Shown one piece after another: positions 2,998 to 59,972 of a stretch of 64,000 nt of DNA. The DNA lies in IMG/VR virus record IMGVR_UViG_3300032116_000088, positions 26,668 through 90,667 of that record. One strand, 5' to 3'. A model generated the notes under the pieces. The model had not been told where the DNA came from. It saw only the letters and a list, made by a program, of their open reading frames with translations, and searched no databases. This DNA is from a virus. Both the position numbers and the translations under genes were made by a program. The first letter of the stretch is position 1. The number at the start of each line of letters is the position of its first letter.

Positions 2998-4355
2998 TGC
3001 CTACACTAATTACTGCTAGAGACAAAGCCAAAGCAGCTGCAGAGGACAGACAATCTGCTGTTCAAGAGTTTGCTGCCTTAACCACTTATGCTACTAAAGT
3101 TTCTAATCTAAAAAGGCAAATAACTGACGTTGATATTGAAATAGCGTCAACTACACAACAAATAAAGATTCTTAGAGATGCGGACCCTAATGGAACTGTT
3201 TACTCTGTTCAACAAGAAATAGACGTTCTAGAAAGTCAGTTAGCCCAATTAAAAAATGATAGAGGGGTTATCTCTTCTAAGCTAACTTCTTTAAATTTAT
3301 CTGTAAGTTTAAGTCAATCATTATCTAAACAAGAGTCTGGTATTAAAGCTAAAACTGATGCCAAAAAAATAACTAGTACAGGAACGGCTGCTTACAAGTC
3401 CATAAATAAGACTACATTTGCTCCTTTACAGTACAATGCTAGCTCGGTTAAAGAAGCATACTTTAGTACTAGAACAGACTTTATAAACAAAGTTATGCTG
3501 TCTCACAATCAACCAAGAGTAGTTCGTTCTGCTTCTGATTTATGGACTTCTGTTATTGCAAGTAAAGGAATGATTGTTACTTCAGAGCAAGTTTTAAAGG
3601 CGTGGAATTCTGGCTCAAATAAAGCACAATCAACAGACTATTTTGATAAACACAACTACGGATTCCAATTTCAATACAATCCAGGAACTGTTGCAATGAG
3701 CTATTTTACGTCACCAAACGTTGACGTAACTATGATTACCTCCGGTTCTGAAATGTTTAACTTAGCTGGTGTATCGGGTTCTCAAGGCTCTGTTTCTTTT
3801 CAAATTATTATAAATAGAATTTTTGATATGCAATATTATGATACTGACGGTAATTTGCGTAATCCAGAAAGATACTCCAAGAGGCCTGCAACAGTTCAGG
3901 AAGAAAAAGACATTTATAATAAAGGAACAATGTACGATTTAGAGTTCTTATTAAGAGTACTAATGGGAACTACTATGAGCAGCTACCTTCGAGGAGAAAA
4001 CACTGCTGATATGGGTTGGCTTCCTGCTATTCCTGTAGAACTTCATTTAGGTAAATCATTACGATACCTTGGAGTGGTTAATAGTTTGAGTGTAAATCAC
4101 ATTATTTTTAATGAAAGAATGGTTCCACTCTTTACCACTGTCGATATAGCCTTTGCTCGTTTGCCAGATTATCCGCCTGGAGGAACAAGCAGCAGTTCTG
4201 GTGGTCAACCAGGAGCCTGGTCTACTTCAACTTCAAATTCTGGAAATAATTCTGGGTCATCTGTTGGAAGTAGCGGAGGAAGTTTACCTGGAGGTACTTA
4301 CGATATGGGTAATCTTGGTGTTGGTGGCGGCTCAGGAAACCCTTACACAAATTAG
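2997..4355 (+). CDS. Tail/baseplate protein (coiled-coil N-terminus, tube-initiator-like domain)
   Basis: FQFQYNP motif and FNERMVP motif as in contractile-tail tube initiators; synteny. Confidence 0.55.
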   Translation: MPTLITARDKAKAAAEDRQSAVQEFAALTTYATKVSNLKRQITDVDIEIASTTQQIKILRDADPNGTVYSVQQEIDVLESQLAQLKNDRGVISSKLTSLNLSVSLSQSLSKQESGIKAKTDAKKITSTGTAAYKSINKTTFAPLQYNASSVKEAYFSTRTDFINKVMLSHNQPRVVRSASDLWTSVIASKGMIVTSEQVLKAWNSGSNKAQSTDYFDKHNYGFQFQYNPGTVAMSYFTSPNVDVTMITSGSEMFNLAGVSGSQGSVSFQIIINRIFDMQYYDTDGNLRNPERYSKRPATVQEEKDIYNKGTMYDLEFLLRVLMGTTMSSYLRGENTADMGWLPAIPVELHLGKSLRYLGVVNSLSVNHIIFNERMVPLFTTVDIAFARLPDYPPGGTSSSSGGQPGAWSTSTSNSGNNSGSSVGSSGGSLPGGTYDMGNLGVGGGSGNPYTN

Positions 4356-43014: not shown

Positions 43015-43584
43015 TTATACCTTTACTTTTTCTTTTTCTTCAACTGGCCAGTAATACTCGTAACTAGTTGGTTGAACACCAGCATCTTCTGGCCACTCAA
43101 AATCACTGTAGTGTTCATAGTTTTTATTAAGTAATGCTATTCTATGAGTACGCGTGACAAGTTTAACTGTTTCAAGGTCACGCATCCATTCAGGAGTCAA
43201 GGATTCATCAGTAATCCAAGTATCCATTGAAAATGCTAAACCAGCATGTTTCATTGTATCTTTTAGTTTTTTCTCTAAGGTGCTTTTATAGCCACGACGT
43301 TTCCATTCCCGAACCATCTCTAAAATGTAAACACACAAGGCTGTTTCATAACCACGCCACATCCTAACGGCCGGGTGATTAACCCAGCCTTTAGGAGTAC
43401 GTGGATTACCGTCAGGGTCTACTTCTAGTAGGCACATAACTATCTGCCAGCCTTCAAGCGCTTGTTTGTGTAGGCGCTTGTTGTCTAGTTGCTTAGCAAT
43501 TTCTCTAGATGTAAATGCCCAGTTTTGTAGGTTACTTTCATTAAAACCTAGTTCAATTGGACTCGTCGTTAAAAACGTCTGCAT
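43015..43584 (-). CDS. Pyrimidine-dimer DNA glycosylase-like (MSMEG_6728/DenV family)
   Basis: MQTFL, LDNKRL.KQ..E..QI, GW.NHPAVRMWRG, HR..LL.K, Y.WP. Confidence 0.8.
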   Translation of the reverse strand: MQTFLTTSPIELGFNESNLQNWAFTSREIAKQLDNKRLHKQALEGWQIVMCLLEVDPDGNPRTPKGWVNHPAVRMWRGYETALCVYILEMVREWKRRGYKSTLEKKLKDTMKHAGLAFSMDTWITDESLTPEWMRDLETVKLVTRTHRIALLNKNYEHYSDFEWPEDAGVQPTSYEYYWPVEEKEKVKV

Positions 43585-46703: not shown

Positions 46704-47075
46704 TTACTCCATTTCACTTGATTGATTGTTAATAGCTGTCTCAATGGCATCTTGCAATAAGGTCATGATGTCAATGATATCGCTGTCTTTTAGGCCTAAA
46801 CTGTTGCCTTCTTCATCTGCACCACCGGTGATAACAACATCACCCATAATAACATCTGCATTAGGAAACATTTTATTCCATAGCAATGTGGCTAACACAT
46901 TAGGTTGTAGCCCATTTATTTTACCTTCTTCGTTCAACCACATATCTACATCTCTATTGAGTGATACTAGTTCAACTAGACCGTTAACTGATTCGAATAA
47001 GAAGTCATAACTAATGTCTTCTACTTCTTTAACGGATACGCTATTATCTGTTGTAATAGATAATACTTTGTGCAT
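46704..47075 (-). CDS. DUF3846-like protein
   Basis: V.GLVE.V......WLNEEGK...L.PN..AT......I.GDVVITG..DEEG. Confidence 0.75.
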   Translation of the reverse strand: MHKVLSITTDNSVSVKEVEDISYDFLFESVNGLVELVSLNRDVDMWLNEEGKINGLQPNVLATLLWNKMFPNADVIMGDVVITGGADEEGNSLGLKDSDIIDIMTLLQDAIETAINNQSSEME

Positions 47076-47136
47076 TTGTTTCTCCTTAGTTTGTTTGTGT
47101 TGGCACGGCCTAGTGGCCCTGCTATACCTGAGCGCT

Positions 47137-47913: not shown

Positions 47914-49854
47914 TTACTTACTTAGATTACGCTTGATGGCAAGTCTAACAATTGCTTTAGCAAGAGTTAGAAGTGAACTGCCGTCTTCAAGTGGCACAAC
48001 AATTTCTGAGTTGTGACCGTTGATTGTACGCTTCTCACCTGCTTCTCTACGACGCTGCATGAACTCTTCACCGTACTGTCTGTACTCATCAATAAAACCT
48101 AGGCTAGTGATAACACCATTGCGTCTAAGGTCAGCAATAATCTTGTCACCTTCTTTGCCATACCATTCACCATCAGTAATAGTGATAAGTATCTTGATAG
48201 CACGTGTGCTGTTGGCTAGAACATACTTAGCATACTTAAGTGCATCTTCTGGCTCTGTACCACCAGAGTCACTAGTAATTTTCTTCATAGGCTTAGCACG
48301 TTCGTCTGCTGAGTAAAGCAACTTAGCATCGTTGTCGAATGTAACTACTGTAGTAGATGCGTCTATCTTATCTAGTGAACGCTTGATAGCCCAAGTAGAG
48401 TCAAAGGCAGAGTCTCTAGTCCAAGACATTGAACCAGATACATCTAGAAGAATAACTGCTTCGATATCTGTAACGTCATCTCTACCGTTGTCCCACTGGT
48501 CAAAGCACTCATCAGCATCAACACCTGTAGCATAACGTTGAACATTAAGTCTACCAACTTCAACCTTGCGATTCCAACCTGGGTCAAAGTCAGCCTTGAT
48601 TAGTGATAGTTGATTGGCAAATGATTTGACTTGTGCTACAACATCAGCAGGCACAGCAGCAAGTTGCATATGATAACCTTTCTCTGGCTTAGCAACATAC
48701 TTGCTACTAAGTTGTGGGTCACCATTGAACTGTGCTATAAGGTCATTAACATCATCACGCAACAACTCTTTGATTTGGTTGTTATGCTTTTTGATATTGT
48801 TAACAGCATTATCAATATGACCTGTGCCTGCTGAACTACTTGTGTCATCTTGTGGTTGACCAGGTTGACCAGGTTGACCAGGCTGATTACCAGGCTGACC
48901 AGGACTCTTGCCAGGAACTTTAGGACCACAACCACCGTTAGAACCAGTAGGCTCAGGGTCACCTTCTGCTTCTTGGTCACCGTCTGGATTAGTAGGTTGA
49001 GCATTACGTTTCTTGACAATCTTGTCAATGATACGGTCTTGACCAGCCTTGTTAGTAGTCTTGGACTTGTCACTAGACTTAGCACCAGGATGACCACAAG
49101 TACCACCAGTAGGTGATGGTGGACGCACAGGTTCATTAGTATTTATCTTGAGTAACTTATGTAGTCTCTCGATAAGTTGCATAGCTAATGGTATGTGTGC
49201 ACTGTTAGACAGGTTAAGTATTGTATAGTCATCAATTATAGAACCAATCTCTGCAACAATACTCTGGTCAACAAATGCATCCTTGATTACTTTACGTAAG
49301 TCATCAGGTAAAAATGTTCTACCGTGTATCAAAGGATAAGCATAGGGTATAGAGTTTGTATCCTTCAATAACATCTGAGTGATAGAAGCAGTAAACCAAT
49401 GCTTGACGTTACTATACTTAGCATCTAAGAATACTTCAAGACGCTGGTCTTCAAGTATGTTGAATGCTATGTTGTATTCATTGTTTTTGACCCACTTAAC
49501 TAGATTGCTACTAGACCGTGGAGTAAACAATATGTGACCAACTTCGTGTAATGAAATACCCTTGACTGCGATAATTGAATCGGGGTCAGTAAGGTCACCC
49601 ATTTCATCTTCGTTGAACCAAATGTTTTCAGCATCAGACCAGGCTTCGATATGACGCATATGATTTGGATTTTTAGCACTTGTTGACATTGATACGTGAA
49701 TAAGTCTAGCAGTAAGAGCACTAGCAAATTTACTTACGACTGAAGTCATACGTGCATTGCGTTGCTCTGTTGTATCAGTAGGCAACATATTGTTGACAAC
49801 TTCTACATACTCAGACTCAAACAGGGCATCAATATCGGCTATATCTTTTTCCAT
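47914..49854 (-). CDS. vWA-domain protein with N-terminal HExxH domain (MoxR partner)
   Basis: HEVGH..FT, NILED.R.E, QPG repeat linker, MIDAS DVSGSM, GGT, ITDG. Confidence 0.85.
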   Translation of the reverse strand: MEKDIADIDALFESEYVEVVNNMLPTDTTEQRNARMTSVVSKFASALTARLIHVSMSTSAKNPNHMRHIEAWSDAENIWFNEDEMGDLTDPDSIIAVKGISLHEVGHILFTPRSSSNLVKWVKNNEYNIAFNILEDQRLEVFLDAKYSNVKHWFTASITQMLLKDTNSIPYAYPLIHGRTFLPDDLRKVIKDAFVDQSIVAEIGSIIDDYTILNLSNSAHIPLAMQLIERLHKLLKINTNEPVRPPSPTGGTCGHPGAKSSDKSKTTNKAGQDRIIDKIVKKRNAQPTNPDGDQEAEGDPEPTGSNGGCGPKVPGKSPGQPGNQPGQPGQPGQPQDDTSSSAGTGHIDNAVNNIKKHNNQIKELLRDDVNDLIAQFNGDPQLSSKYVAKPEKGYHMQLAAVPADVVAQVKSFANQLSLIKADFDPGWNRKVEVGRLNVQRYATGVDADECFDQWDNGRDDVTDIEAVILLDVSGSMSWTRDSAFDSTWAIKRSLDKIDASTTVVTFDNDAKLLYSADERAKPMKKITSDSGGTEPEDALKYAKYVLANSTRAIKILITITDGEWYGKEGDKIIADLRRNGVITSLGFIDEYRQYGEEFMQRRREAGEKRTINGHNSEIVVPLEDGSSLLTLAKAIVRLAIKRNLSK

Positions 49855-49878
49855 ATATATTCTCCTATATAAGTTGGC

Positions 49879-49911
49879 GGGTAGCGGCAACCATTACCAT
49901 TGCCGCTACCC
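49879..49911. terminator. 12-bp perfect hairpin between AAA and vWA genes
   Basis: GGGTAGCGGCAA / TTGCCGCTACCC. Confidence 0.5.
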
Positions 49912-49917
49912 TAGAGT

Positions 49918-51276
49918 TTACTCGTTGTAGCCGTTAAGTGGCACACCGAGTTCTTGTGCGATAACATCTACGTTAGCATCAAAGGTCATCTTGATTGCTT
50001 CACGCTCACCGTCATCCTTAGGGAAGTTGTTGAGCATAGATGATACAGCAAAGGATAGGTTAAGACCCTTAGCCTGCTCTATGAAGTTGAGCAAGATACG
50101 GGTAGACATAGGCTTGCTGAACTGGTCAGTAGTCTTGCTTGCTTCACGAATGCTGTGTGCAAACTGTAGCAGAGCAGATGAAGGTATGAACTTAGACTCA
50201 AGTTCGATGTCGTAATCGAACTCTAACTTAGGTTGCATACGGTCATACAAGGCATCATCTTGACGTTGAACACCTGTATAACCCTGACCTGTGTTCTGGT
50301 CAGCAATGAACAGACACTCAGGATGAACCTTGATGACCTGGTTTAGCTGGTCAACAATAAGTTCACGCTCATTAAGAACACGAAGCAAGAGAGATGCAGC
50401 CTTAGGCTGTAGTCTGCTCAACTCGTTAATCAGAATGACTGATGGCTGTTGAATTGCTGTAGCAAACTGACTGTACTTCCACTTGGTGCTGTTGCCTACA
50501 CCTGTAGGAACAAAGCGACCGTGTAGAACAGTCTGGTCAATCTGCTGTGTACACTCTACAACTACGAACGGTATATTGCGAATGTGTGCATAGTGCTCTG
50601 CAGCACTAGACTTACCTGTACCGGCTGGACCAGTAAGCAAGACAGTTCGTTGGTTATCTCTTGCAAAGTCAAATACTTGACTCTCAAGAACACCATCGAA
50701 CACTCGCTCAATGTGTAGCCTACCGGCTGGAACAGTGATTGGTGTCTCGTTATCGGAACTTAACACGCTACTGTTGGTATATTGCATGGGTGTCTCCTGT
50801 ATAGGAAGTTCAATCTCTTGAACTTGTGGGTCAGGCTGTGGCGGAGTTGCTACAACCTGTTGCACCACTGGCTGTGGTGTGGCTTGTGTTACTTGAACAA
50901 CTGCGTTCTCATATACTGCTAGAGAACTTGGGTCATTCATAGTCTGCTCTACCAGAGTATTGAACTCATCTAGAGCAGAATTACTTGTCACATTGCTAGC
51001 AGTTAGTTTCTTACCTAACTTAACTAGGAACATTGACGGTGTAATTGTGGAGTTGATTATCCTGTCTTCTGCAGGAGTAATCTTTAGTGATACTGGGCTT
51101 CCGACTAGCATCTCATTATCTTCAATGAGAACGTCGCCTTCAACCCAAGCACCAGCACGACCTCGTCCTTCTCCAAGCCTAGAGAAAATACGAACATTAC
51201 CATCTGCTGTTGGCGTAATGGCTACAGTTCGTAGTTCTCCTTGACTGTTTTGGGACTTCATCATTGCTGCATACAT
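49918..51276 (-). CDS. MoxR/CbbQ-like AAA+ ATPase
   Basis: GPAGTGKS, ILINELSR, N.G.GY.G....D.AL.DR, STR. Confidence 0.85.
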   Translation of the reverse strand: MYAAMMKSQNSQGELRTVAITPTADGNVRIFSRLGEGRGRAGAWVEGDVLIEDNEMLVGSPVSLKITPAEDRIINSTITPSMFLVKLGKKLTASNVTSNSALDEFNTLVEQTMNDPSSLAVYENAVVQVTQATPQPVVQQVVATPPQPDPQVQEIELPIQETPMQYTNSSVLSSDNETPITVPAGRLHIERVFDGVLESQVFDFARDNQRTVLLTGPAGTGKSSAAEHYAHIRNIPFVVVECTQQIDQTVLHGRFVPTGVGNSTKWKYSQFATAIQQPSVILINELSRLQPKAASLLLRVLNERELIVDQLNQVIKVHPECLFIADQNTGQGYTGVQRQDDALYDRMQPKLEFDYDIELESKFIPSSALLQFAHSIREASKTTDQFSKPMSTRILLNFIEQAKGLNLSFAVSSMLNNFPKDDGEREAIKMTFDANVDVIAQELGVPLNGYNE

Positions 51277-51308: not shown

Positions 51309-51671
51309 TTATTCGATGTCAAGATTTTTGATAATGTCATCGAATTCTTGGTTAATTTGCTTTTGTGCAATATCATCACCTGATTGCCAAAGAATCTTGG
51401 CAGTTTTAGTAATTTGCATAATGGCAAATACAATTTCATGCTTCTCTCCGTCATCATCAACAATGTGGTGAACTCCATCAATAACTTCATGAGATTGTTC
51501 GTGCTCTTTGTGCATCTCTACAAGTGCTTCGAGATACGCATTAGCCGCCTTCTCTGAAGGAAACTCCATAGGCCAAGCCTCTGGTTCTTCTTCACATAGG
51601 TGGCAACGCTTTAAGATAATGTAATTTGCTGGAAACTTTGGCAAATCATCATCTTTAATACGATGTTCCAT
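51309..51671 (-). CDS. Hypothetical protein
   Basis: GAAAGGT SD before MEHRIK. Confidence 0.55.
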   Translation of the reverse strand: MEHRIKDDDLPKFPANYIILKRCHLCEEEPEAWPMEFPSEKAANAYLEALVEMHKEHEQSHEVIDGVHHIVDDDGEKHEIVFAIMQITKTAKILWQSGDDIAQKQINQEFDDIIKNLDIE

Positions 51672-51689
51672 AATATTACCTTTCATAGT

Positions 51690-52372
51690 AATAAAACCTA
51701 GTAGCGACTTGCTACTAGGTGTATCTGTATGACTATACAGAACTTTACAGCCTAAGATGTTTGTGTCGGCTAGGCTTATCACACCGACTAGGTCAATGCC
51801 CCGTGGCTACACTGTAGTCTGACTTATACAAGCCCATCTATATAAGATGCTGTTGACTTGTGTAGCCACGGAACATTAGAAGAGTTTAACCATCTAGTTT
51901 GCGCCCAATACTCAATATGCTAGTTACTCTTTACTCACTAAGGTTCACATATATCTAACGTCTTCAATTATCCGAATAGAAGCGAAGCGCCTATCTATAA
52001 GCCAAGCCTCCCACTTGAACGGGCTTTGATTGACTGGCCTAGCCACACCAGATACTATACATTGCTGTATAGAATTCTATGCAGTCTTTCACAACTAAAC
52101 ATAGACTCGAAAGTTTCTGCCTAGTTGTGAAAGTTTATACACTTAACTGCTTAGTGTTTGACTTTACGTTGTCATCGTTTGTAGTTTTACGAGGAATTGT
52201 TATGCTTTGGAATTCCACCTAATGCACACCCACCGACTCTACTCATTACTGAGTGCCAGCTGCTACCTTTACGTACGGGGCATCACGCTCGATGGTTTTT
52301 GTTTACGGAGAGCCATACCAAAAAACTCTCCCCAGTGCTCATTTATGACTTACGTCAAGGGGGATGCACCCC
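51690..52372 (-). ncRNA. Candidate large structured ncRNA containing a tmRNA-message-like segment
   Basis: ~680-nt gap without a credible gene; 12-bp stems at 51801-51871 and 52086-52133; two H-type pseudoknots; 3' hairpin 51696-51720 followed by U-rich tract. Confidence 0.6.
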
Positions 52373-52384
52373 ATCTAAGTATTG

Positions 52385-53421
52385 CTACTTAGAATTCTTT
52401 TGTTTGAGGTTATTGAGTGCGTCAACAACTTCTTGCAAAGCCTTAGGTGTTTCTACAGGTTCAGTGATTTGAATACGGCTAATCTCATCACCATTTTCGT
52501 CATACTTAACTATTTCTGCTATCGCACCAGGGTCTTGAGCCATAAGCCTTGCCTGTATAACTTCTTGGTCTTCACCAGTTTTTTCTGATTCTTCCCATGC
52601 TTCAGCCATTTGGTCTAAGAACTTATCAAGGTCATTGATTCTCATAGCCGTTCCATTAGCAAGAATACGCTTTGATTCTTCTGGGTCTAATACAGTCATT
52701 TTTTAATTCCTAACAATTTTTTATTTTCTTTATACTCTTTTTGCCAACCTCTTAAGTCTGGGCAAAGCCAATCGTGTAACTTCCAAAGTAAAAAGTCAAA
52801 CGATAACCAATAACCTAAGGCACTAGTCTTCCATTTACGGTGGTAGTATATTTGGCATATGTATGGTGCTGTAGCACAATATTCTTTTGTGCAACCATAC
52901 AAGTTTTTTCTATTCATTTGTTTCTCCATCTTCTTCTGGGTTATCGAACTTAGATAAACGTTCGTTCATCTCGTCAATAATATTTGTGCTAGGGGTTTCA
53001 AAAGCATTATCAAACACTTCTTTAGACCAAATTGCTATAGCATCATCATCTGTAGGGTCTATCCATTCTTGGTCTGGTATAGACCACACGTTGATAAGTT
53101 CGTGTAGTCTGCCTTTAAGAACAGATAACGCTTTCTCTTGGGCATCTCCTTCATAACCGATGTCCTGCTCTAGGTCAGCGATTACTAGTTTGTATGCTTC
53201 TTGTAGTTCACTCATTTGTTTCTCTTTCTATCTCTGTTATCTTGTATAACCATTACTTTATATAAGATGTTCCATATAAAGAACGGAATTCTAATCCAAC
53301 CTTTAGGTTGCACATAAAAATCAATTTTATATTTTGATTTAGGTGACATACCTAATGTAAAGGGTTTAAAGTGTACGTGAAATACTTGTGTGTCAAGTAA
53401 TTCTTTAGGTAGTTTATTCAT
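52385..53421 (-). other. Four small hypothetical ORFs (52385-52699, 52696-52929, 52910-53215, 53212-53421)
   Basis: Coupled minus-strand ORFs. Confidence 0.55.
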
Positions 53422-53424
53422 TTA

Positions 53425-53739
53425 TTACCATCCTTTTTCTATTGTTGTTATTAGTTCTGTATAGAACTCAACAGTTGTTATGCCTAAACCACGGCATAAA
53501 GCTTCTACAGTGCTAGAACTAGCAACCTTTTGACCTAGTTCTACTTCGCAAATAAACGCTAAAGCAACATTGCTATTTTTAGCTACATTGCGTAGTGTCA
53601 AGTCTTTGTTCATACGAATGCGTCTAAGTGTTCTACCTATTTGAGAGTTTAGACTATTGTGTCTGAAATAGTTAGTGGTTGTCTTAGGTTGTTTGTGTTG
53701 GCTAGGCGGCGACGCTAGACTAACGCTTGTTGTAGGCAT
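53425..53739 (-). CDS. XRE-family HTH regulator
   Basis: IGRTLRRIR...LTLRNVA...V...FICEVELGQK.AS....ALCRGLG; start uncertain. Confidence 0.75.
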   Translation of the reverse strand: MPTTSVSLASPPSQHKQPKTTTNYFRHNSLNSQIGRTLRRIRMNKDLTLRNVAKNSNVALAFICEVELGQKVASSSTVEALCRGLGITTVEFYTELITTIEKGW

Positions 53740-54955: not shown

Positions 54956-55062
54956 TGTTTTCCTACCTTTCTATAGGCTAAATGGGGCTTGGTTAATCTA
55001 TAGGATACGGTTCAATTGAGCGAGCTACCACGGTCATAACCAAGCCCCTTTGTTACCCTTAG

Positions 55063-55114
55063 AACGCCCCTACACCATGTAAATAGGGGGTTCTAAGGGG
55101 GCTTTGCCCCCTTA
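55063..55114. repeat. GC-rich double hairpin, copy 1 (copy 2 at 55664-55707)
   Basis: AACGCCCC...GGGGTTCTA-(A/G)GGGGGCTT(T)GCCCCC shared by both. Confidence 0.65.
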
Positions 55115-55297
55115 CCCATAAAGGAGGTAATATCTCAAGGGGGACTTATTGTTTAGAGATACTACGTGCCCTAGAGAGCGGACTATGAGGCTCCCTAGGG
55201 CTTGCAAGACTTAGAGTATATAAATACCTGCTTGCTTGTTGAATTAGATAGGGCACAGAGATAATGCTTTGACTAAATCCGCCGTTATCTATTGATA

Positions 55298-56025: not shown

Positions 56026-56231
56026 AACGGCTCCTTTCTATGAGCGTGCCCTAGGCAGGACTATGCACCTACCTGTAGGCTGCCTTACGGCTTCCTATAG
56101 GGCTTGTCTATATATAAAGCCTACAGACAGGCTTAGGGACTGTTATACTTGATAACAGTGACGGGCAGGCTTCGTAAATCTGGCTACAGACTCACTTAGC
56201 CTGCCCGTCGGTTGGACAGTAGCCGAACGGC

Positions 56232-56705: not shown

Positions 56706-57034
56706 TATCACTCCTTATTAGTGATAAAGGTGATACCTAGGCGATTACCTAGGCACGCGTGCCATACCTAAAAGATACGGCACACGCCTAAATACGCGGT
56801 TAGGTGTCTAGCCGTGTAAATAGGTGTATGCCGTAGCGTTTAGGGCGTTCATAACTACATAGATAAGGGCACTAGCCTAGTGTTGCCTAGTGCCCTTACC
56901 TAGTATGTAGGTCTATCTAGGCGTATTGCCTAGACCTAACTACTATCCACGCCACTAAACCCGTATTGGTTGCCTAGTGGCGATAATTCCATACTAGCCT
57001 AACCCCTTACCACTACCCTAACGCTAACACCTAA
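56706..57034. repeat. Dense inverted-repeat array; probable genome end / packaging region
   Basis: At least six consecutive hairpins, e.g. TAAGGGCACTAG/CTAGTGCCCTTA, then degenerate CCCTAA repeats. Confidence 0.55.
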
Positions 57035-57087
57035 GAGATGGGCCAGGTGAAAAACACGGTTGAAGCTTTTTTATATTAAGCAGTAGC

Positions 57088-59892: not shown

Positions 59893-59972
59893 GGGCCTAA
59901 AATGGTGTCGATTGCACAGCAAAGCCGCAAGTCGGAGTGTGTAAGACCACAGTTCGATTCTGTGTAGGTCCA
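59893..59972 (+). ncRNA. Stand-alone tmRNA tRNA-like domain (mini-tmRNA)
   Basis: Acceptor GGGCCUA/UAGGUCC with G3.U70 and A73; stemless D-loop AAAUGGUGUCGA; 7-bp stem; GAC then T-arm CACAG-UUCGAUU-CUGUG. Confidence 0.8.

Follow-up and report, generated by a model that had tools for sequence, protein, structure and literature searches.

Exchangeable structured RNA cassettes predicted in an early-gene gap of a myovirus-like phage

Known Systems and the Locus Under Study

Large structured phage RNAs whose function has not been assigned, such as GOLLD and ROOL, are rare. Both are large, ornate RNAs that are represented in Rfam and whose structures were obtained by cryo-electron microscopy (PMC12286853). 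The present analysis concerns a gene-free gap of 713 nucleotides (nt), positions 51672-52384 of a 64,000-nt stretch of viral DNA (hereafter, the window), which corresponds to bases 26668-90667 of the 90,667-bp IMG/VR record IMGVR_UViG_3300032116_000088, a record with direct terminal repeats. The original prediction had proposed that this gap encoded one highly structured non-coding RNA of ~680 nt, transcribed as a single unit with a complex fold, comparable in size to ROOL and GOLLD and possibly a new class. Comparison with five further loci indicated instead two predicted RNA cassettes in tandem, cassette A (52079..52374, minus strand, ~300 nt) and cassette B (52080..51696, minus strand, ~385 nt), each headed by a short boundary hairpin, here termed H. 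Coordinates of all features in the gap refer to the minus strand unless stated.

Like the RNAs proposed here, ROOL and GOLLD are multi-helix RNAs, often encoded by phages or prophages, which are found in gene-free gaps and have no assigned function. GOLLD was first seen in lake metagenomes. However, the cassettes of the gap measure only 300-385 nt each, against ~580 nt for ROOL and ~800 nt for GOLLD, and the gap consists of a tandem of separable cassettes, known from six loci of one narrow phage clade, that matched neither model.

In T4-type phages, composite elements of promoter and terminator, known as promoter-early stem-loop (PeSL) motifs, mediate modular shuffling (PMC2839356, PMC4122927). 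The likeness to the present locus lies in a short conserved stem-loop motif placed at the edges of variable segments, which are gained and lost among close relatives. In contrast to PeSL, the hairpin of the gap carries no sigma-70-like promoter on the transcribed strand, is limited to two or three copies at one locus of each genome instead of being dispersed, and borders segments that include structured RNAs and not only open reading frames (ORFs).

A further likeness is found with the nut elements of lambdoid phages (boxA and boxB) and the put elements of HK022, in which a constant loop may be carried on differing stems. As in these elements, a conserved single-stranded block is followed by a short GNRA-type hairpin, and this arrangement is repeated in an early operon of a phage in which none of the ten large ORFs scanned was identified as an RNA polymerase gene. 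In contrast to them, the gap lacks a boxA-like sequence, and no protein resembling N was identified.

Two Cassettes in the Gap and Their Homologous Loci

The gap is flanked on both sides by minus-strand early genes, and it was confirmed to be the longest gene-free stretch of the minus-strand arm, the next ones measuring 376, 342 and 206 nt. The proposal that it is non-coding also stood, as no conserved ORF was found in it. Each of the six reading frames of cassette B was interrupted by 5-16 stop codons in every homologue, no ORF led by a Shine-Dalgarno (SD) sequence was common to the homologues, the sense strand of the window's copy held no SD-led ORF longer than 15 amino acids (aa), and tblastn with the proteins of relatives recovered no remnant in the gap. 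Regarding folding, the minimum free energy (MFE) of the minus strand of the gap was -230.5 kcal/mol, against -186.4 +/- 6.2 kcal/mol for dinucleotide shuffles (z = -7.2), and cassette B gave z = -4.4 to -5.4 in the relatives. Together with the compensatory base changes observed in relatives, these values bore out the prediction of a strong and conserved structure.

The comparison with Rfam that had been proposed for the gap was carried out with cmscan (Rfam 15). At gathering thresholds, the whole window returned only a tRNA-Asn, which is its single tRNA. At E <= 10, segment 51400-52700 gave three chance-level matches, with 16-18 bits against gathering scores of 40-70, and nothing relevant was found in two of the homologous loci (L012 and L014). 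Since no family matched, ROOL and GOLLD included, the RNA of the gap may belong to a new class. In this respect the earlier suggestion of a new class survived, although not in its form of a single 680-nt RNA.

The collection of homologues, which had also been proposed, yielded five further loci. Comparison of the gap with 50,697 phage records by blastn gave no match, and neither of the neighbouring small proteins, used as single queries, retrieved relatives in IMG/VR. A search with the AAA ATPase encoded downstream of the gap recovered L002, L003 and L004, with 64-66% amino-acid identity, as well as four more distant phages (48-49%) without the gap. A profile of the protein encoded immediately downstream, referred to as family A3, led to L013, which is identical to L014, and an exact search for the invariant core of cassette B in metagenome contigs added one new contig, L012. 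Exact scans of viral contigs with this core, with the conserved block of cassette A and with a degenerate pattern of H followed by CUGG retrieved just the loci already known. Covariance model R1 was absent from the four more distant relatives G001-G004. Neither the core nor the A3 protein had a match in bacterial and archaeal genomes, so that no host target and no prophage copy emerged there. The comparison set was therefore composed of six loci (the window, L002, L003, L004, L012 and L014), the contigs encoding the more divergent A3 proteins P0012-P0017 falling outside it.

The order of the elements differed among these loci. Cassette B was found in six of six, always directly upstream of the same operon, which encodes the A3 protein with its CxxC motif, the AAA ATPase and a vWA protein. 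Cassette A was present only in the window and in L012 (~655-905), and the other relatives have at its place a third cassette, C, or small protein genes. Thus, reading towards the CxxC gene, the order is gene, A, B in the window; C, A, B in L012; C, B in L003 and L014; C, a 47-aa SD-led gene, B in L002; and C, a small gene, a 109-aa gene, B in L004. Judging from these arrangements, the gap is composed of two separately inherited predicted RNA cassettes and not of one giant RNA.

Cassette B, a Conserved Structured RNA

Cassette B comprises ten helices, designated H, S1, S2, P3, P4, P6, Plong, Paca, X and T, whose order is kept, and whose positions are nearly kept, at all six loci. From 5′ to 3′, its layout consists of the GNRA hairpin, the core, two small hairpins, P6, a branched long stem, a hairpin with a CA-rich loop, and two hairpins abutting the ribosome-binding site (RBS) of the CxxC gene. 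When the 5′ domain was aligned with a covariance model, 96.9% of the cells formed a pair and 11 of the 27 pairs were changed on both sides, a number reached by 0 of 500 shuffles and compared with 0-3 pairs in slid controls. Moreover, a covariance model built without the window detected the window with 53.5 bits (E = 1.8e-14). The 3′ domain was aligned by hand, since MAFFT misaligns the window there; the covariance model in turn put the 3′ strand of the window's long-range helix in the wrong place, and that part was likewise aligned manually. The compensatory changes in cassette B thus exceed those of the controls, as expected of a conserved structured RNA, which the alignments predict it to be.

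The best-conserved part is the core (52022..52053), a 32-nt segment, AUCUGGUGUGGCUAGGCCAGUCAAUCAAAGCC, which occurs once in the window and is identical in five of the six loci (the window, L002, L003, L004 and L012). This invariance contrasts with the adjacent protein, which is ~30% identical, and with the AAA ATPase, which is ~65% identical. The core could form an H-type pseudoknot, with candidate stems S1 (CUGG/CCAG) and S2 (GGCU/AGCC) and an A-rich third loop (UCAAUCAA). In L014, a variant of the form CUGG..GGG..CCAG..A-rich..CCC keeps both stems and the A-rich third loop.

With two short stems and an A-rich third loop, the topology of the core, and of a segment of cassette A, recalls that of preQ1-I riboswitches, and the phage encodes an enzyme similar to queuine tRNA-ribosyltransferase. 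This candidate did not find support. A search of a 76-nt segment around the core at E <= 10 matched no Rfam model, preQ1 and other riboswitches included; no free C is available at the ligand-pairing position, the residues before CCAG being GG; no conserved expression platform was found; and the cassettes are not beside 7-deazaguanine genes.

Downstream of the core, hairpins P3 (52003-52017) and P4 (51975-51999) had four of five and four of seven pairs, respectively, changed on both sides among the six loci. The loop of helix P6 (51887..51926) has the sequence UAUUGAGUAUUG in the window and UUGCUGAGU in relatives. It is complementary to part of the hairpin heading cassette B, namely its 3′ strand and linker, and on direct reading 11 of 12 positions pair in the window. 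In L003 and L004, where the loop of H is GUAG and not GCAA, and hence not of the GNRA type seen in nut and put elements, the distant segment changed in parallel from UGCUAC to CUACUAC. Because the change in the loop is matched by one in a distant segment, it points to RNA-RNA pairing over recognition of the loop by a protein. These observations suggest that the P6 loop would pair with H, either as a tertiary contact or in an alternative fold.

The long stem that had been noticed in the window, CCGUGGCUACAC/GUGUAGCCACGG, was recovered and can be extended to 17-18 bp (51795-51812 / 51860-51877). It corresponds to Plong (51796..51876), which in the window has 17 bp, including two U.G pairs, and a branched interior of 47 nt. 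In relatives, its counterpart is a stem CAAGCCCCCUG/CAGGGGGCUUG of 10-16 bp, unrelated in sequence to CCGUGGCUACAC, which closes 34-46 nt. Hairpin Paca (51749..51776) presents a conserved CA-rich loop, GCCGACACAAACAUCU, and its stem covaries in four forms (AGCCUA/UAGGCU, GGGCUAG/CUAGCCC, GGCAG/CUGCC and GGCGA/UUGCC), while GCCnACACAAACA is kept in the loop. Hairpin X (51724-51741) resembles H, has a GCAA loop in relatives and also has a covarying stem. The closing 10-bp hairpin of the original prediction was located at 51696-51720, where it constitutes the terminal hairpin T, followed by the tail UUUUAUUAC. Although the stem of T covaries, the U-run that follows it was found in the window only, and a discrete 3′ end at this hairpin is for this reason doubtful.

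Cassettes A and C

Compared with its homologue in L012, cassette A is a second predicted structured RNA, unrelated to B and with a pseudoknot candidate of its own. This H-type candidate (~52293-52331) would combine GGAGAG/CUCUCC with UGGU/ACCA and an A-rich tail. Its second stem reads GGGU/ACCC in L012, a compensatory change, and another was observed in a hairpin with a GUAA loop (52241-52254), whose stem is ACUCA/UGAGU in the window and ACUUG/CAAGU in L012. A conserved 45-nt block (52154-52198) is 89% identical to L012 over 46 aligned positions. The 12-bp hairpin CUUUCACAACUA/UAGUUGUGAAAG named by the original prediction was found at 52086-52133, with arms at 52086-52107 and 52112-52133, and the helix AAGAGU/ACUCUU is likewise present in the gap. 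The pairing GGGGUGCAUC/GAUGCCCC fared less well: it can form, but only with a bulged U and against competition from a local hairpin, GGGG-UGCAU-CCCC, and the MFE fold does not use it.

Run X13 provided some natural variation in cassette A. A sequence from this run converts one G.U pair into A-U at position 52260. A contig of the same run matches only 52229-52292, the 64-nt centre of the cassette, and is unlike the window on both sides, which suggests the existence of a further, more divergent natural variant.

Cassette C is absent from the genome of the window. It was located in L002 (3773-4000), L003 (3934-4150), L012 (409-625) and L014 (2365-2580), and it is probably present in L004. It contains a covarying long-range stem of 15 bp, GUGAUGCCUGUCUAG/CUAGACAGGCAUUAC, with compensatory changes in L014.

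The Boundary Hairpin and the Exchange of Cassettes

Two copies of H bracket cassette A in the window. The copy heading cassette A, H1 (52375..52400), is formed by AAGAAUU followed by the 7-bp hairpin CUAAGUA-GCAA-UACUUAG, with a GNRA loop, and the copy heading cassette B, H2 (52055..52080), by AGAAUU followed by CUAUACA-GCAA-UGUAUAG. Together they constitute an 18-nt direct repeat (family D1). Among the loci, six versions of the stem were observed, all of them Watson-Crick paired, and the loop is GCAA except in the two loci mentioned above. The hairpin is found two or three times per genome, at this locus only, the window having two exact copies. Cassette A is also bracketed by H in L012, and in L004 and L002 the hairpin directly follows a protein gene. 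The arrangement of the loci indicates that this boundary hairpin, with consensus AAGAAUU-CUAnnnA-GCAA-UnnnUAG, marks the points at which cassettes and small genes appear to have been gained and lost. The exchange would probably proceed through recombination between copies of H, which may double as a site of RNA processing or protection. Such exchangeable, hairpin-bounded cassettes suggest that non-coding RNAs in the early regions of phages shuffle in the manner of small accessory genes.

Transcription and the Favoured Interpretation

The minus strand is favoured as the transcribed one by the strand of the flanking genes, by the G.U pairs and by somewhat lower z-scores. The curated helices contain nine G.U pairs and one A.C pair when read on this strand, and four pairs alternate between G.U and Watson-Crick through a change on one side. 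No sigma-70-like promoter was found on the minus strand within the gap. For this reason the cassettes are probably part of an early polycistronic transcript; considering also that T lacks a U-run in relatives, read-through from the upstream genes into the downstream operon would be the simplest model. As a weak indication of transcription, one contig from a lake metatranscriptome covers 52116-52253, in cassette A, and another one covers 52532-52712, touching the upstream gene; the parts that no such contig covers are uninformative.

The interpretation to which we assign a probability of about 60% is that the gap holds structured RNA cassettes co-transcribed with the early genes. Cassettes A and B would probably be transcribed on the minus strand within the early polycistronic transcript; B would then act in cis as a structured leader, or be processed into a stable RNA, and its invariant core would be where a conserved partner binds, whether protein or small ligand. 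A bolder version, which we hold as tentative and clearly less probable, is that A and B found new classes of phage RNA whose pseudoknot cores bind a ligand (for example, one linked to the 7-deazaguanine metabolism of the phage) or a protein of host or phage, controlling the operon or acting in trans on the host after processing at the GNRA hairpins, and which are mobile through recombination between hairpins. A core that turned out to bind a ligand or a host factor would represent a new class of aptamer or decoy; otherwise, the locus would still illustrate cleanly how structure is conserved in the leader of an early polycistronic transcript.

Several observations weigh against the favoured interpretation. 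Both strands of the gap beat the shuffles, the plus strand with z = -4.9. The count of G.U pairs is biased because the helices were picked on the minus strand. Read on the plus strand, the invariant core resembles a promoter, TTGACT-17-TACTAT. The two stems of the candidate pseudoknot owe their support to one variant, that of L014, which represents a single event. The metatranscriptome contigs give neither strand, ends nor abundance and could reflect carry-over of DNA. No conserved structure sequestering the RBS was found, and any cis-regulatory mechanism is consequently putative. Finally, only six loci are available, which represent roughly four independent lineages of one narrow phage clade, and as these loci are few and related, the covariation statistics are limited and inflated by relatedness.

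Near-identical DNA, comprising all or part of the stretch, is found in metagenome runs of 15 studies, mostly of freshwater or lakes. Since the phage is abundant in freshwater metagenomes, strand-specific metatranscriptomes could test expression without a cultured host.

Alternative Explanations

Among the alternatives, the one that survives best, although we consider it unlikely, is that the gap acts at the level of DNA, as PeSL-like hairpins for recombination or with promoter and terminator activity separated by drifting spacer, as a replication origin, or as a cluster of protein-binding sites. Such an element would fit the gain and loss of cassettes precisely at the copies of H, which resembles PeSL-mediated modular shuffling (PMC2839356, PMC4122927), and also the promoter-like reading of the plus-strand core and the better-than-chance folding of both strands. 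In addition, GCCnACACAAACA recurs seven times in the window, against 0.45 expected, and is also found in distant relatives without cassette B. A drifting spacer, however, would not hold ten helices through compensatory changes, and the pairs maintained through G.U on the minus strand would turn into A.C mismatches if the opposite strand were read. Neither iterons nor an AT-rich unwinding block is present in the gap, L003 and L014 have a decayed form of the -10-like hexamer, TGCTAT, H is confined to its two or three copies at this locus, and the gap has no sense-strand sigma-70-like promoter. GC-skew showed no origin-like inflection at the gap.

The single integrated RNA of ~680-710 nt, with one complex fold and in the size class of ROOL and GOLLD, is a somewhat weaker contender, improbable on the evidence of the other loci. 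In the window taken by itself it looks attractive: A and B adjoin without an intervening gene, the gap as a whole reaches z = -7.2, and its MFE fold joins the two halves through long-range pairs, among them the 9-bp AUGCCCCGU/ACGGGGCAU. These pairs, however, have no counterpart in L012, which retains both cassettes; four loci carry cassette B but not A; and the place just ahead of B that A takes in L012 is occupied in L002 by a small gene. In L004, B directly follows a protein gene, which rules out an obligatory single fold of 680 nt. The failure of ROOL, GOLLD and the other Rfam families to match tells against this proposal as well. The claim of one transcript with a complex fold was thus the part of the original prediction that did not find support.

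Less probable still is an antisense regulatory RNA, transcribed on the plus strand from the promoter-like site in the core, through cassette A and on over the 3′ end of the upstream gene. The site TTGACT-17-TACTAT (52030-52058, plus strand) scores 9/12 and lies in the best-conserved block, and the plus strand has the z-score of -4.9 given above. Nonetheless, a promoter needs no 32 invariant bases that include its spacer, and the key A at the second position of the -10 element is G in L003 and L014. Since the segment downstream of the site varies among cassette A, a protein gene and cassette C, no antisense product is common to the loci; the antisense ORFs lack conservation as well, a 1-nt insertion or deletion (indel) in L014 shifting the frame.

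It is very unlikely that cassette A represents the detached message part of a split transfer-messenger RNA (tmRNA), whose partner would be an 80-nt tRNA-like mini-tmRNA at 59893-59972. The idea drew on a pseudoknot-linker-ORF layout at 52135-52226, the best-conserved part of cassette A, whose putative tag, TNDDNVKSNTKQLSV* (the asterisk being the stop), resembles tmRNA tags in its N-D-D-N start. However, ARAGORN recovered no tmRNA from the window or from the five relatives searched, and the tmRNA models of Rfam were negative for the gap and the relatives. In L012 the frame has an indel, no stop at the matching place, a different C-terminus and non-synonymous substitutions. Homologues of the mini-tmRNA gene, with 84-88% identity, were found in G005 (C1:50669-50750), which lacks cassette A, and in G002 (C1:1554-1639), which lacks cassette B.

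A similarly remote proposal is that the gap is occupied by small protein genes that escaped annotation, or by decayed pseudogenes. It draws on the SD-led genes of 47 to ~60 aa in the same neighbourhood of L002 and L004 and on cassette C, part of which has an open frame with conservative substitutions in L003 and L012. It is countered by the shortness of the SD-led ORFs and the stop codons described above, by the lack of protein similarity to the genes of relatives, and by the state of the cassette C frame, which in L012 has no start codon and in L014 is disrupted.

Other candidates were rejected. An intron was discarded because the flanking ORFs are not exons, as the upstream neighbours differ among loci. 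A cobalamin riboswitch ahead of the CobS/CobT-like genes had no Rfam match. Retron, omega RNA and bridge RNA were set aside, as no gene for a reverse transcriptase, TnpB or a recombinase was found among the neighbouring ORFs listed or scanned, and an alternative genetic code was dismissed because the neighbouring genes read normally with table 11.

Neighbouring Genes and Other Observations

The window belongs to a myovirus-like phage, which encodes a baseplate wedge protein, a family A DNA polymerase and ribonucleotide reductase, besides the enzyme similar to queuine tRNA-ribosyltransferase. The early gene upstream of the gap (52385..52699, minus strand) encodes 104 aa without a Pfam match, and its last codons and stop codon lie within H1; its 109-aa homologue in L004 also terminates inside an H hairpin. 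Downstream, the CxxC gene (51309..51671, minus strand) encodes 120 aa from an ATG at 51671 (MEHRIKDD) and is preceded by the RBS GAAAGG at 51679-51684. The AAA ATPase (49918-51276, minus strand) and the vWA protein (47914-49890, minus strand) follow in this order.

The A3 family comprises 18 clusters in the protein database, and Pfam gives it just a weak match to Imm30. Its AlphaFold model, with mixed alpha/beta structure and a predicted local distance difference test (pLDDT) score of 73, had no fold match in PDB at E <= 0.001, and the structure therefore provided no hint of RNA binding. Of the more divergent members, P0012-P0017, P0015 is ~62% identical to the protein of the window, and P0014 is a shorter, near-identical form of it.

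The three next-longest gene-free stretches of the arm, at 54956-55297 (342 nt), 56026-56231 (206 nt) and 56712-57087 (376 nt), lie upstream of the gap and are also rich in hairpins. Several of them finish in a shared ribosome-binding context, AUAGAAAGG, and none has sequence similarity to cassettes A, B or C.

The seven occurrences of GCCnACACAAACA in the window were counted with at most one mismatch. Copies were found at 43463-43475, 47092-47104, 51758-51770 and 53690-53702, all on the minus strand; the one at 47092 is just 5′ of an SD sequence, and another lies in the 5′ part of a gene for a helix-turn-helix regulator. In four relatives (G001, G002, G005 and G006), the motif occurs one to three times each, always on the strand of the early genes, and a control with the reversed pattern gave 0. 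Possible roles for it are those of a phage promoter, an operator or a translational enhancer.

The small genes found at the position of cassette A, in L002 (approximately 4006-4149) and in L004 (approximately 3700-3887), encode 47 to ~60 aa and carry the RBS string AAGGAGAAACAAATG, which also stands ahead of a gene at 47075 in the window.

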